64,000 nucleotides of DNA from Anabaena cylindrica PCC 7122 (GCF_000317695.1 NC_019771.1:2463823-2527822), one strand, 5' to 3'; shown: positions 25,833 to 41,491, numbered from the stretch's first letter. The notes: generated from the sequence alone by a model not told the origin. Numbers and translations are program-made.

Positions 25833-26301
25833 ATACCCTGGTTGGAGTATAATTTCTTCGGTCCTACCAAGATTGCTGCATCTTTACGCGAAATTGCTTC
25901 TAAGTTTGACGCGAAAATCCAAGCAAATGCTGAGAAGGTAATTGCTAAGTACCAACCTACCATGGATGCGATCGTTTCTAAATATCGCCCCCGTTTGGAA
26001 GGTAAGACAGTTGCAATGATGGTTGGTGGTCTACGTCCTCGTCACGTTGTTCCCGCTTTCCAAGATTTAGGAATGAAGATGATTGGTACTGGTTATGAGT
26101 TCGCTCACAACGACGACTATAAACGTACTACCAACTACATCGAAAACGGAACTATCGTTTATGACGACGTTACCGCTTACGAATTTGAAGAATTCATCAA
26201 AGCATTGAAGCCAGACTTAGTTGCTTCTGGTGTGAAAGAGAAGTATGTATTCCAAAAAATGGGTCTTCCTTTCCGTCAAATGCACTCTTGGGATTACTCC
26301 G
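25833..26301 (+). CDS. nifD: nitrogenase MoFe protein alpha chain NifD, internal segment (interrupted on both sides)
   Basis: ...[26 protein letters not shown]...[19 protein letters not shown]...[15 protein letters not shown]...[17 protein letters not shown] matches roughly NifD residues 290-445. Homology starts abruptly at 25833, after a stop at 25806 and unrelated codons. It ends at the 11-bp repeat 26291-26301. Confidence 0.85.
26291..26301. repeat. XisA-type recombination site, left copy (GGATTACTCCG)
   Basis: Identical to the known 11-bp nifD-element repeat of Anabaena. It lies inside the NifD codons for HSWDYS. Confidence 0.8.
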
Positions 26302-26769
26302 AACCTGATTATGTTGGTGGAAAGGTGCGTTAATTTGATGTTTTTTGGTTGGGTAATTAAGAGAATTTGATTTTTAGACTAAATGTATTTAATTATGTTC
26401 TATAATAACATTGTTTGTTGGTAGCTGCAAGTAGTAAAAGTCTGATTTTTCAGGGTTTGAGGGAGTTGTTAATTTTTGATAGTTTCTGATTTGGTTATGT
26501 AGGATAACTTTTTGTGGGTTTGTTTTTTAGACTAAACTAGACTACGTTTAGGCAAAAAAAGGTTACTAATTCTTATGACAACATGATTAACTATATAAAA
26601 TATAGTTTTAATCAATGTAAAAAAACACAATTTTCTTGGTGATTATCTATTTTTTTGATAAGATAGAAATAATTTTGCTTTCCGAGAGGTCTATTCTTTA
26701 TGTCTTCGTTGGAATGGGAGAAAAATAGAAATTTTCTTGCATCAGGTTTGATAAATTTATACCTACCAA

Positions 26770-27393
26770 TTGAGCCAGTTTCCTTACAAGCAAGTCGAAG
26801 AAATAAAGAAAGAAGTAGTTACTTCTCAAATTCATCGTATTACCAGTGCTTACAATTTTATATTAGTTGGTGATGTTCAGATAGATATAAAATGGCATAT
26901 TCATGAGCAGAATCGTTATGAATCAGATTCGTCAGCTGATGTAGATAATATTATTAAACCAATATTAGATGCTCTATGTGGACATAAAGGTATTCTTATC
27001 AACGACTGTCAAGTACAAGCTATATCTTGTCGTTGGATAGACTGGGAATCTGATAATCAGGAGATTATAATAACGATTCAGATGTTTTTTAACGATGAAT
27101 GGTTGCTAAAGTCTGGACTTATTTTTACTCATATGGGTAAAGGAATCTGTTATCCCATTCTATTAAATGACATAGATCCAAAATATACTTTAGTAATACT
27201 AGAAGACCTAGAAAGTAAAATAGCAAGACGCGATGAACTTATGGCTAAAGGTATGAGCTATTATCATGCACAAGGAGTGATGTCAATTCAGCGAGTTTTT
27301 CATATTTCAAGAGTTCAAGATTTTGATATCATTCAACTTAATGATCTTAAAAAACAATTACTGACTGAAAGTGAGATTTTAAAGGATTTTTAG
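26770..27393 (+). CDS. RusA-like endodeoxyribonuclease domain protein (with C-terminal extension)
   Basis: SADVDNIIKPILDALCGHKGILINDCQV resembles the RusA D-x-DN...K...DAL...DD motif. At 207 aa it is longer than canonical RusA. Confidence 0.4.
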   Translation: MSQFPYKQVEEIKKEVVTSQIHRITSAYNFILVGDVQIDIKWHIHEQNRYESDSSADVDNIIKPILDALCGHKGILINDCQVQAISCRWIDWESDNQEIIITIQMFFNDEWLLKSGLIFTHMGKGICYPILLNDIDPKYTLVILEDLESKIARRDELMAKGMSYYHAQGVMSIQRVFHISRVQDFDIIQLNDLKKQLLTESEILKDF

Positions 27394-27568
27394 TCATAAC
27401 TATAACTTGCGAAAAGAAGTCTAAAGTCTGTCGGTGGGGTTAAGCAACCGCACAACCCAACATAATTTGAAAAAATAATCAATTACATCCTGTAAATCCT
27501 AAAATCCTGGATATCCTGATTCAGACAATTAATGCTACAATAAATTAATAATTACTTGGTATCATATC

Positions 27569-28303
27569 ATGATGATTACTCAAGCACTGGAATTACAAAC
27601 TAACACCTTAGAAGATATATCAGCAGATATCATTTTTCCACCTAGTGACCTATATAGTGATGAACCTCCCGTGGAAACAGAACTGCATCTCGAACAGATA
27701 ATGCTCTTAATAAAATCACTCAAATGGCTATGGAAGGAGAGAACAGATTTTTATGCTGTAGGAAACCTAAGTATCTACTATAGTCCTCATCAAAAGAAAT
27801 CAGAAGATGTTAGAGGTCCATATTTTTTCGTAGTTTTAGGAACAGAACGAAAAACTAGAAAAAGTTGGGTAGTGTGGGAAGAAAATGGCAAATATCCTCA
27901 TGTCATTGTGGAAATTCTTTCACCAACTACAGCTAAAACTGATAGAGAAACCAAAAAACTACTTTATCAAGATACTTTCCGTACACCTGATTATTTTTGG
28001 TTTGATCCTTATACATTAGAATTTGCAGGATTTAATTTAATCAGTGGCAAATATCAACCCTTAAAACCTAACGAAAAAGGACATTTATGGAGTGAAGAAT
28101 TGGGTTTATATTTAGGGATTCATGAGGGTTTATTAAGATATTTTACATCATCAGGAGTTTTAGTTCCTACACCGGAAGAAAGCGCAGAGATGGAAGCAAC
28201 AAGAGCAGCAATGGAAGCAGAAAGAGCGAAAATATCAAACGAAAAATCTCAAAGGTTAGCCGCAAAATTGAGAGAGTTAAATATTGATCCAGATACAATT
28301 TAA
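27569..28303 (+). CDS. Uma2-family (DUF820) putative endonuclease
   Basis: YPHVIVEILSPTTAKTDRETKKLLYQDTFRTPDYFWFDP matches the conserved PD-(D/E)xK core block of the family. Confidence 0.65.
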   Translation: MMITQALELQTNTLEDISADIIFPPSDLYSDEPPVETELHLEQIMLLIKSLKWLWKERTDFYAVGNLSIYYSPHQKKSEDVRGPYFFVVLGTERKTRKSWVVWEENGKYPHVIVEILSPTTAKTDRETKKLLYQDTFRTPDYFWFDPYTLEFAGFNLISGKYQPLKPNEKGHLWSEELGLYLGIHEGLLRYFTSSGVLVPTPEESAEMEATRAAMEAERAKISNEKSQRLAAKLRELNIDPDTI

Positions 28304-39911: not shown

Positions 39912-39945
39912 CTTTTACACAAATGATATTATTGATTAACAAAAA

Positions 39946-41250
39946 TTAACTCCTTTTATAAACCACTTCCATTCTCAACTTCTCCATCTCAATCTTCAAC
40001 CGTTCATTCTCCATTTTCAACCCTGTATTTTCATCCTTAATCAACTCCACCTCATTCCGTTTACTCAAAGCCTGATTAATTGCCAACTTCCGCATATCTA
40101 AAGAGAACCAACGTTGATATGTTTTCGTATGAATCTGCACACTATGACCCAAATTATCCGCCGCAGCTTTAATAGGAATCCCCAAAATATGCGCTCGAAT
40201 TGCCCAACCATGACGTAAATCATAAGGTTTAAAATCTAAACCTATTTTTCTAAACCACCAACTCACTCTTTGAATTAAAGCCGTGATTTCTGCATGATTA
40301 TTTTTATCTTTTTTACTAATTGCTATTGCCAACATTTCTAAATACTTCGGATTTCTTAAATCAAATTCATCAATCCATTCTTTATATAAAGGCAAAGCTT
40401 CTCTTTCACCAGTTTTACAATCTTTATCAACTTTCCATGTTAAATCTATATTTTCATCACTTAACCACCAAGCAATATGAGGATTAATAAAAAGCTCACG
40501 GGGACGTAAACCAAAAACCGCTAACATTCCATAAATCCAGCGCCATAATTGCCAGCTATCTTTCACATCTTGATTAACTTGCTTACCTCTGTTATTTAGA
40601 TATTCATCAAACTTGTAGAATCCTGTAACTATTTCCTGATCTGTGGGAACATTCCGAGAATTACTCTCAGGCATTTTGGAATACTTAGATAAATCAATTT
40701 CAATTTTAAAGGTCTGACAAAAAGCAGAAATAGCTCTAGCGGCATTATATTTTGCCCATTCTTTATCTAGTTTTTCAAGTGAAGCAATCAAATTTTCCGC
40801 AGTTGCTAAATATTGAGGATTAGTGTAGCGTTTTGTTCGGGAAAAATAATAGAAAAAAGTATGCTCGCTTTTAGTAGTGCGTTGATGGGTTTTAAAATAT
40901 TCCTCTTCAAACTGTTCGAGTAATTCTCCTATAGTTGTTAAATCCTTTTTAATGGACTCATTTCCTAAATATTTATCAGTCCAGGTAAATGTTTTTCTAG
41001 CAATTAATTTTCCTAATTCATAAGCTTCCTCTTCTGCTGTTTTTAGTCCATCCAAGTTTGCGGGAATATTCAGAGTGATATTGTATTGTTTTCTTCCCGT
41101 TTTCCTTGTGTCCTGATCTCCCGGTTTAATTGGTAACGTTGCCCGTAATTGCAGAGATCCATTTGATTCTCGAATTGTTACTCTCGTCTTCGCAGACTTC
41201 AAACGCAGATTTACTTGTTCTAATTCCAGTAGAATTTTTTCTTTCATCAT
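39946..41250 (-). CDS. xisA: site-specific tyrosine recombinase XisA (nifD-element excisase)
   Basis: 434 aa. C-terminal catalytic region RPRELF...YDLRHGWAIRAHILGIPIKAAADNLGHSVQIHTKTYQRW has the R...HxxR...Y arrangement. Position and orientation match xisA of the Anabaena nifD element. Confidence 0.85.
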   Translation of the reverse strand: MMKEKILLELEQVNLRLKSAKTRVTIRESNGSLQLRATLPIKPGDQDTRKTGRKQYNITLNIPANLDGLKTAEEEAYELGKLIARKTFTWTDKYLGNESIKKDLTTIGELLEQFEEEYFKTHQRTTKSEHTFFYYFSRTKRYTNPQYLATAENLIASLEKLDKEWAKYNAARAISAFCQTFKIEIDLSKYSKMPESNSRNVPTDQEIVTGFYKFDEYLNNRGKQVNQDVKDSWQLWRWIYGMLAVFGLRPRELFINPHIAWWLSDENIDLTWKVDKDCKTGEREALPLYKEWIDEFDLRNPKYLEMLAIAISKKDKNNHAEITALIQRVSWWFRKIGLDFKPYDLRHGWAIRAHILGIPIKAAADNLGHSVQIHTKTYQRWFSLDMRKLAINQALSKRNEVELIKDENTGLKMENERLKIEMEKLRMEVVYKRS

Positions 41251-41480
41251 CCTTGGTGTTGCAGATTAAGAATATAGATTTATTGCACGCAGAGACGCAG
41301 AGTCACAGAGAGTAAGAGTTGAGAATTTTCTCGTTCCCAATCCAATCAGAGTTTGGGAACGAGAGGTTGGTATTAGCCTATATTTAGACTAAAAATAAAT
41401 GTGTTATCTGCATACATTGTTTATCGCTGACATTGCTCACTGCAAACATAGCGAAGTCAAAAGCTATTAAACCATTAGAA

Positions 41481-41491
41481 GAACTACTCCG
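41481..41491. repeat. XisA-type recombination site, right copy (GAACTACTCCG; 9/11 identical to left copy)
   Basis: The core TACTCCG is shared. The flanking codons continue NifD (GPYHGYDGF). Confidence 0.75.

Follow-up and report, generated by a model that had tools for sequence, protein, structure and literature searches.

The classical interruption element of nifD is that of Anabaena PCC 7120, about 11 kb in length (Golden et al. 1985) and provided with the recombinase gene xisA (Golden and Wiest 1988). The dependence of excision on xisA in that strain is stated in the titles of Golden and Wiest (1988) and Brusca et al. (1990). For the nifD 1355 variant, entries of Hilton et al. (2016, PMC4874684) give element sizes of 11.07, 18.4, 20.7, 58.0, and >328 kb, and the core sequence TACTCCG was reported in 25 of 32 interrupted nifD genes (bioRxiv 10.1101/629832). 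The present study deals with a stretch of 64,000 nucleotides from Anabaena cylindrica PCC 7122 (hereafter the window), in which positions 26291-41491 had been read, in an original prediction made from the sequence, as a XisA-type nifD element of 15.2 kb with imperfect recombination repeats and unusual cargo. Based on the results presented here, this interval is almost certainly the 3'-nifD interruption element of the strain, a member of the classical XisA family recorded as element #4 by Hilton et al. (2016), which is excised in heterocysts by way of TACTCCG.

Identity and excision of the element

Table B of Hilton, Meeks and Zehr (2016, PLoS One 11:e0156034, PMC4874684) has an entry "Anabaena cylindrica PCC 7122 #4" for nifD, with the direct repeat TACTCCG at position 1357, a length of 15.19 kb, a guanine plus cytosine (GC) content of 0.3499, and the location NC_019771 2,490,117-2,505,306. 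The xis gene of this entry is Anacy_2214, a tyrosine recombinase in minus direction, situated at the end and 237 bp off the element edge. In the window, the interval 26295-41484 was 15,190 bp long with a GC content of 0.3499, the same values as in the table, and the distance from 41484 to the second methionine of xisA at 41247, which is the start used in GenBank, was likewise 237. The sequence TATACCCTG at 25832 preceded TACTCCG by 463 bp, a spacing equal to that of the coordinates of Hilton et al., and the repeat CATATACT of a nested element in a primase-P4 gene had its end at 13668 of the window, the equivalent of 2,477,490 as a boundary in their coordinates. Moreover, an exact-sequence look-up found four proteins identical to GenBank entries of PCC 7122, i.e., XisA (AFZ57675.1, annotated "XisA, Anabaena cylindrica PCC 7122"), an SPFH protein (AFZ57664.1), a 192-amino-acid protein (AFZ57663.1), and an ISL3 transposase (AFZ57673.1). 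Because the published fingerprints and the exact protein matches agree, the window could be placed at about NC_019771 2,463,823-2,527,822. The 15,190-bp element is therefore already catalogued with its exact parameters and is not a new one, so that its presumed novelty has to be given up.

Excision has been reported as well. In a preprint, the 15,190-bp 3'-nifD element was cut out precisely in the heterocysts of A. cylindrica ATCC 29414, as followed by sequencing, polymerase chain reaction (PCR), and quantitative PCR (bioRxiv 10.1101/629832). The genome of that strain is at least 99.63% identical to that of PCC 7122, the edited copies amounted to 70.8% in heterocysts versus 0.4-0.5% in vegetative cells, a heterocyst contig was found without the element, and the PCR products matched an intact nifD of 1,503 bp (bioRxiv 10.1101/629832). 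As exactly 15,190 bp were removed, the diverged right repeat is the one used. A lack of excision product or an unused right repeat, either of which would have spoken against the original prediction, is thus contrary to the published heterocyst data of ATCC 29414.

Some points weigh against the assignment. The identity of the element is established at the level of fingerprints and exact protein matches; the excision experiment was carried out in ATCC 29414, not in PCC 7122, and was published as a preprint (bioRxiv 10.1101/629832); and no perfect GTA-N8-TAC (NtcA-type) site was present upstream of xisA in the window, so that the regulation is unreadable from the sequence. No contradiction was found in the sequence, and an XisA-type nifD element which recombines within TACTCCG to restore nifD, as predicted, agrees with the restored frame, the intact adjacent xisA, and the published excision.

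Recombination sites and restoration of nifD

The features on which this identification depends are as follows.

25832-26301, plus strand: middle segment of nifD (NifD residues ~300-455), by translation and alignment to solved NifD
26291-26301, plus strand: left recombination site GGATTACTCCG, core TACTCCG at 26295-26301
39946-41250, minus strand: xisA, tyrosine recombinase, 434 amino acids (433 from the GenBank start at 41247)
41481-41491, plus strand: right recombination site GAACTACTCCG, core TACTCCG at 41485-41491
41485-41631, plus strand: 3' segment of nifD, stop codon at 41629-41631
41838-43388, downstream of the 3' segment of nifD: nifK (Pfam NifK)

The left site GGATTACTCCG was, as predicted, identical to the 11-bp site of PCC 7120 quoted in PMC11249958. 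The right copy agreed with it at 9 of the 11 positions, also as predicted, and exact identity was confined to the 7-mer TACTCCG; the bases next to this core differed between left and right, with T versus C before it and A versus G after it. The starts of the two repeats were 15,190 bp apart. The middle segment of nifD began at TATACCCTG (25832-25840), the first part of the gene being beyond the window. When the two halves were joined at the core, the predicted restoration of the frame was obtained, i.e., a peptide of 199 residues that aligned ungapped with residues ~304-490 of solved MoFe-nitrogenase alpha chains (E = 4e-96), with the insertion point at the conserved position between HSWD and YSGPYHG. 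The 11-mer itself was not enriched in the window (11 matches with at most two mismatches, versus 9.6 expected by chance). Since it is at chance level when taken alone, the significance of the repeats comes from the reading frame, the adjacent xisA, and the conserved ends.

A survey of 80 XisA loci fetched from species-representative genomes, for 79 of which the right junction lay on the contig, showed how far the repeats vary. TACTCCG followed by YSGPYHG was present at 79 of 79 right junctions, but the search used the exact core and hence this count shows presence, not independence. The four bases before the right core were GGAT in 53 of the 79 loci, mostly Nostoc, Scytonema, and Calothrix. 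The right 11-mer was degenerate in the other 26, which include every relative from Anabaena, Dolichospermum, and Aphanizomenon, and the variants found before the core were TAAA, AGAA, GAAA, GAAT, GGAA, AAAA, and TAAC. The last of these occurred in L002, the closest relative, with the right copy TAACTACTCCG. Similarly, in Table B of Hilton et al. (2016, PMC4874684) the repeat of A. circinalis, Anabaena sp. 90, and PCC 7108 consists of TACTCCG alone, and 7-bp repeats are entered for four Anabaena genomes. Because of these entries and the degeneration in all relatives, the imperfect 11-mer is best regarded as a trait of the clade, and it represents no danger to nifD. Judged from this natural variation, the obligatory identity, and hence the strand exchange, is probably confined to the 7-bp TACTCCG. 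About 7 bp is the usual length of the overlap region of tyrosine recombinases such as lambda Int, Cre, and XerCD, so that the repeat variation narrows the obligatory identity to the length expected of such a region.

XisA and the ends of the element

The xisA gene occupies the nifK-proximal end of the element and runs in a direction opposite to that of nifD. Hundreds of Nostocales proteins, among them several annotated as XisA, shared 82-95% identity with its product in full-length comparison, and the best match in the genome collection (95%) was in Anabaena sp. WFMT. The precomputed Pfam domains of the exact protein were XisAC_N and XisAC_2nd. The invariant columns in an alignment of 10 sequences included R249 in GLRPRE, Y343-D-L-R346-H347, H369, and Y378, and by analogy catalytic roles are probable for R249, Y343, R346, H347, H369, and Y378. 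XisA is thus intact. That the diverged right repeat marks a dead, non-excisable insertion and this nifD copy a pseudogene, for which the two mismatches in the 11-mer are the sole point in favor, can practically be dismissed, since excision of exactly 15,190 bp is reported (bioRxiv 10.1101/629832), the 26 of 79 surveyed elements with a degenerate 11-mer nevertheless have intact xisA and nifD halves, 7-bp repeats are entered by Hilton et al. (PMC4874684) for four Anabaena genomes, and XisA in the window is intact.

Both ends of the element contained conserved motifs.

26373-26383 and 26526-26536, plus strand: palindrome TTTAGACTAAA, present twice, at +78 and +231 bp as counted from the left core; putative sites of an accessory or arm type
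41365-41484, minus strand: conserved block of ~120 bp that separates the right core from xisA, from an alignment of 14 elements

The block of ~120 bp was kept in 14 of the 14 elements aligned, and it holds the palindrome TTTAGACTAAA once more (41383-41393, 102 bp from the core) together with repeated AATGT/ACATT motifs. The sequence TTTAGNCTAAA occurred three times in the window versus 0.12 expected, all three inside the element ends. Throughout the fetched loci (1.56 Mb) and the window, it was found 100-112 bp inside the right core, mostly at -102, in 69 of 80 elements, and, of the 17 elements with a visible left end, 13 had it at about +78 (in one case at +120); elsewhere it occurred once only. 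This distribution makes the TTTAGNCTAAA palindromes good candidate sites of an accessory or arm type.

The following course of events is proposed. In vegetative cells, the element would split nifD after the codon for D between HSWD and YSGP. During heterocyst differentiation, the element-encoded XisA would synapse both sites, possibly with the conserved TTTAGNCTAAA palindromes close to the two ends as accessory binding sites, and exchange strands inside TACTCCG. The products would be a circle of 15,190 bp and an in-frame nifD. The chromosomal junction predicted after excision is ...TGGGATTACTCCGGTCC... / ...CACTCTTGGGATTACTCCGGTCCTTATCAC..., and that predicted for the circle is ...AGAAGAACTACTCCGAACCTGATT.... 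A complete nifD would also need the excision of the separate 5'-nifD element of 74,986 bp, the right end of which is at 25832-25840. The anatomy of the element, with the frame restored on joining, XisA at one end, and the ends conserved, is shown by the present results.

Size and cargo

Between the left end and xisA, the element carried the following genes, apart from the tRNAs and the non-coding region treated below.

26770-27393, plus strand: RusA-like protein, 207 amino acids (Pfam RusA, E = 2.6e-8)
27569-28303 and 28369-28944, plus strand: two Uma2 putative endonucleases (Pfam Uma2, E = 1e-18 and 1e-31; weak PADLOC PDC-S03)
29050-29565, minus strand: cyclophilin-type peptidyl-prolyl isomerase (Pfam Pro_isomerase, E = 1e-48)
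29721-30299, minus strand: Alr1449-family protein, 192 amino acids
30511-31237, plus strand: internally deleted insertion sequence (IS), 727 bp, with 39-nt terminal inverted repeats that are 95% complementary
31229-32773, minus strand: SPFH/band-7 (slipin-family) protein, 514 amino acids (Pfam Band_7, E = 4e-29; Anacy_2203)
33552-33797, plus strand: Phd/YefM antitoxin (Pfam)
33794-34198, plus strand: PIN/VapC toxin (Pfam), 4-bp overlap with the antitoxin gene
34262-35426, minus strand: remnant of an ATPase operon, in which an AAA_15/AAA_21 ATPase is left with its first 200 codons (34824-35426) and the partner gene with its last 160 (34262-34744)
35439-35663, minus strand: hypothetical protein, 74 amino acids, flanked by the ATPase remnant and the aspartyl-protease-like gene (from the list of open reading frames)
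35663-36082, minus strand: aspartyl-protease-like protein (PADLOC PDC-M52B, E = 2e-60; weak Pfam Asp_protease_2)
36075-36299, minus strand: 74-amino-acid partner of the aspartyl-protease-like protein (PADLOC PDC-M52A, E = 4.5e-7)
36414-37685, minus strand: PIN_8 (PIN-like) protein, 423 amino acids (Pfam PIN_8, E = 2.5e-33)
37878-39311, plus strand: intact ISL3 insertion sequence, transposase at 38005-39282 (32-nt inverted repeats; DDE_Tnp_ISL3)
39279-39911, minus strand: hypothetical gene truncated by ISL3 (reconstruction after removal of the insertion sequence)

The element is, as had been noted, larger than the classical one (15.2 versus ~11 kb). However, this size is an ordinary one, as it falls within the published range from ~11 to >328 kb. 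Elements with both ends inside the fetched flanks measured 3.4-11.6 kb in the survey.

The cargo originally predicted was for the most part correct. The RusA-like protein, the two Uma2 proteins, the Phd/YefM and PIN pair, the aspartyl-protease-like and PIN_8 proteins, the two insertion sequences, and two tRNAs were all present, whereas the label given to the ATPase was wrong and the cyclophilin, the SPFH/band-7 protein, and the Alr1449-family gene had been missed. The Phd/YefM and PIN genes are in a VapBC-type arrangement, with the small antitoxin gene directly upstream of the overlapping PIN toxin gene, whose toxin function is putative. Of its transposase, the 727-bp insertion sequence retained the coding region for the N-terminal DDE_Tnp_1_assoc part alone (30632-31102; Pfam). 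The ISL3 copy was flanked by an 8-bp target duplication, AGAAATTG, at 37870-37877 and 39312-39319, its transposase was identical to several other copies in PCC 7122, and its insertion cut ~48 codons off an open reading frame of ~250 amino acids upstream of PIN_8. The 74-amino-acid hypothetical protein at 35439-35663 matched no Pfam or PADLOC model.

The ATPase had been described as a frameshifted OLD/AAA_21-like protein. Compared with the intact operon of locus L007, in which a 375-amino-acid AAA_21/AAA_15 ATPase overlaps a separate 257-amino-acid partner, the window lacked one block of 732 bp in the alignment. This deletion joins the two genes near 34850; the ATPase has thereby lost its C-terminal half and the partner gene its first ~97 codons. 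The best PADLOC models for the intact L007 ATPase were HEC-01A and AriA, with Old far weaker, and its 257-amino-acid partner matched no Pfam or PADLOC model. The architecture of OLD, with the ATPase fused to Toprim in one polypeptide, was not found, and neither an OLD nor a Toprim domain was detected. As the partner matches nothing and a Toprim domain was not detected, the name OLD is unsupported, and the gene is better described as the deletion remnant of a non-OLD operon of two genes.

The recurrence of the cargo was assessed by tblastn against the 80 loci, in which orthologues within 10 kb of xisA were counted. The Alr1449-family gene had orthologues in 24 loci, the ATPase in 14 and its partner in 10, the 74-amino-acid PDC-M52A-like protein in 13, the aspartyl-protease-like protein in 11, the SPFH protein in seven, the 74-amino-acid hypothetical protein (35439-35663) in six, and the cyclophilin in five. 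The Uma2 and VapBC genes had orthologues in three to four loci each (L002, L014, and L016 for the Phd/YefM-PIN pair), and the deleted insertion sequence had a single match, in L010. RusA gave one weak match; its gene is >10 kb from xisA and therefore mostly beyond the reach of the fetched flanks. No tblastn match was obtained for PIN_8 in the other XisA loci, and this gene, its truncated neighbor, and the ISL3 copy were private to PCC 7122. Several cargo genes were kept at 85-97% amino-acid identity across elements, and the Alr1449-family gene is a conserved cyanobacterial gene which also occurs outside nifD elements. Table C of Hilton et al. (2016, PMC4874684) likewise lists the ATPase Anacy_2207, the hypothetical Anacy_2200, and the band-7 protein Anacy_2203 as shared among nifD-1355 elements. 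The cargo can thus not be called unusual, because most of its genes recur in sister XisA elements. It is a mosaic typical of the Anabaena/Dolichospermum clade, composed of a toxin-antitoxin pair, candidate defense genes, two insertion sequences, and a module of tRNAs, RNA, and SPFH gene, and it is partly decayed.

The tRNA-RNA-SPFH module

Upstream of the SPFH gene and on the same strand, a non-coding module was found.

32832-33190, minus strand: non-coding region, conserved, that separates the tRNAs from the SPFH gene, with two small hairpins, then a structured core of ~272 nt at 32832-33103
33191-33266, minus strand: tRNA-Lys(UUU) (ARAGORN; Rfam)
33267-33341, minus strand: tRNA-Ile(UAU) (ARAGORN; Rfam)

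The predicted tRNAs scored 63.9 and 69 bits with RF00005 of Rfam (gathering threshold 29). The module resembles a transcription unit, and its order is one or two tRNAs, two hairpins, the structured RNA of ~272 nt, and the SPFH/band-7 gene. It recurred in L002, L010, L015, L016, L019, and L022 as well as in eight metagenome contigs (L143-L150), some of which had two tandem copies, each after a tRNA. Homologues of the RNA were collected by nhmmer, and the consensus fold of 15 sequences, obtained with RNAalifold, had 77 pairs with 96.3% of the cells paired. Compensatory pairs numbered 14, versus 7.8 +/- 1.5 in column shuffles, 500 of which were made without one attaining 14, and versus 0-2 when controls were slid, which argues for purifying selection on the module. 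The structured RNA corresponded to no Rfam family at E <= 0.1. A third tRNA was considered at 33105-33190 and rejected, for the T-arm-like hairpins there had no conserved acceptor stem and no ARAGORN or Rfam call. Possible relatives of the RNA in IMG/VR, 61 matches to a 16-mer seed, were rejected as chance, none having a second conserved motif. A perfect GTA-N8-TAC site, the nearest to xisA, was observed 27 bp upstream of the tRNA pair (GTATACGCTCATAC, 33368-33381), in a block conserved in L002, L010, L015, L016, and L019.

The two tRNA scaffolds were orthologous across elements at the following positions.

Window 33191-33341; L002 15754-15905; L010 18665-18814; L015 17112-17268
L016 16049-16203; L019 15741-15816; L022 15045-15120; L043 18784-18933

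Their acceptor, D, and T arms were near-identical, whereas the anticodons varied (UAU, UUU, CAU, CUU, and UUA) and two had enlarged anticodon loops. This pattern would suit tRNAs that are kept for their shape, e.g., as handles for processing by RNase P/Z; alternatively, it would suit tRNAs that follow an AT-rich codon usage. We tentatively propose, at not quite an even chance, that two features of XisA elements are hitherto undescribed, namely the tRNA/RNA/SPFH module as a tRNA-linked RNA family in which the tRNAs would be mainly processing handles, and TTTAGNCTAAA at +78/-102 as arm-type or accessory sites.

Role of the cargo

It is quite possible, although a little short of probable, that the element is a selfish one, perhaps the remnant of a prophage, whose cargo is neutral baggage in decay and of no use to the host, and that it persists only because its excision in terminally differentiated cells renders it harmless. 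Decay is visible in the deleted ATPase operon, the internally deleted insertion sequence, and the recent gene-truncating insertion of ISL3. Moreover, the cargo differs widely among elements, with only xisA and the Alr1449-family gene in common with the 11-kb type, and earlier work cited in Hilton et al. (2016, PMC4874684) is described there as having found no phenotype, in growth or N2 fixation, that depends on the presence or absence of the nifD element. However, the identity of 85-97% at which several cargo genes are kept, the compensatory base changes in the tRNA-RNA module, and the conservation of the Alr1449-family gene in cyanobacteria, also outside nifD elements, are not what such baggage would lead one to expect.

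That the element doubles as a defense or addiction island, a role that would add to that of an excisable nifD element, is plausible but rather less likely than not. VapBC, PDC-M52, Uma2, and PIN_8 would then protect against phage or kill vegetative cells that lose the element, which would account for its persistence. The Phd/YefM-PIN pair is intact, and since about 0.4-0.5% of the vegetative copies are already excised, a post-segregational killer would have a target. The match to both A and B of the candidate system PDC-M52 is strong (4.5e-7 and 2e-60), and that of Uma2 to PDC-S03 is weak; however, both are candidate systems only, and the defense role is a predicted one. PADLOC gave no match for SPFH, PIN_8, RusA, the Alr1449-family protein, VapB, VapC, and the ATPase partner, and for SPFH, PIN_8, VapB, and VapC this lack of a match counts against such an island. 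Further, the AriA/HEC-01A-like ATPase operon is destroyed by the 732-bp deletion, and ISL3 has cut short the gene upstream of PIN_8. In the literature searched, no paper linked nifD elements to defense, and the lack of a growth or N2-fixation phenotype in the earlier work cited by Hilton et al. (PMC4874684) applies here as well. On the other hand, the slot directly inside xisA varies among elements, with NsnA/GmrSD_N and HEPN in L002 (11906-13553), a DrmD-like helicase in L007 (4466-7582), and PIN_8 with the truncated gene in the window (36414-39911), and, to judge by these genes, it looks like a variable hot spot for defense-type genes. The cargo may help the element to persist.

Since publications already cover the element with its size and 7-bp repeat, some of the shared cargo, and the excision in heterocysts, the value of this locus for discovery is small and the useful results are corrective. 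Only the palindromes at the element ends and the tRNA-RNA-SPFH module are possibly new. Together with the variable defense-like slot beside xisA, the fixed-position palindromes and the module provide leads on recombination and persistence.

Neighboring DNA

The window upstream of 25832 belongs to the published 5'-nifD element of 74,986 bp (#5 of Hilton et al., nifD position 894), whose right repeat is TATACCCTG at 25832-25840. Nested in it, at 1-13668, is a second published element that interrupts a primase-P4/DUF3854 gene (repeat CATATACT at 13661-13668, gene fragment at 13658-14821). This nested element contained an array of 16 tRNAs on the plus strand (7283-9861), one of them with an abnormal 4-base anticodon call, and HNH-endonuclease genes were located beside and within the array (6541-7077 and 8169-9041). 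At 10281-13461, a small serine recombinase (Resolvase + HTH), an open reading frame of 553 amino acids without Pfam match, and an AAA_22 ATPase were found, which by eye resemble a transposition module. At the right end of the 5'-nifD element, a run of open reading frames on the minus strand (19409-25521) points to structural genes of a phage-tail-like kind; one of the products, 847 amino acids long, has collagen triple-helix repeats.

Comparison with known systems

Compared with element #4 of Hilton et al. and the 3'-nifD element of ATCC 29414, no difference was detected; there was agreement in length, GC content, repeat, proteins, spacing from the 5'-nifD element, and the place and orientation of xisA. 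With the classical PCC 7120 element, it shares the insertion point in nifD, the left site GGATTACTCCG, and the position and orientation of xisA, whereas the right copy is degenerate in PCC 7122 (a 7- versus 11-bp exact repeat) and the size is 15.2 versus ~11 kb. The Alr1449-family gene is also shared with the PCC 7120 element, as judged by its family name, which is a PCC 7120 locus tag; by its number this gene would presumably be inside the classical element. In an 11.1-kb element (L029), which served as a stand-in for the PCC 7120 sequence, only XisA and the Alr1449-family gene were in common. The XisA proteins are orthologous, with ~82% identity to the A. variabilis copy, and a similar value of 81.5% was given for Calothrix XisA versus 7120 XisA (PMC11249958).

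Like the lambda-type integrase systems, the nifD element combines a tyrosine recombinase and a short identical overlap with conserved accessory motifs that flank the core at fixed distances on either side once the element is in its excised (attP-like) form, although the binding of XisA or a host factor to these motifs is putative in nifD elements. It differs from them in that no separate excisionase gene was identified and in that XisA has a tyrosine in place of the first histidine of the H-x-L-R-H box II (YDLRH), which we take to be a trait of the XisA family.

A further group is that of the Anabaena/Dolichospermum elements (A. circinalis AWQC131C, 18.4 kb; Anabaena sp. 90, 20.7 kb; PCC 7108, 58 kb; and L002-L018), with which the PCC 7122 element has in common the 7-bp-only repeat, the TTTAGNCTAAA ends, and a cargo of ATPase operon, PDC-M52 pair, SPFH gene with tRNAs, VapBC, cyclophilin, and Uma2. 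Among these elements, PIN_8 with its truncated neighbor, ISL3, the loss of 732 bp from the ATPase operon, and the anticodons of the two tRNAs are specific to PCC 7122.

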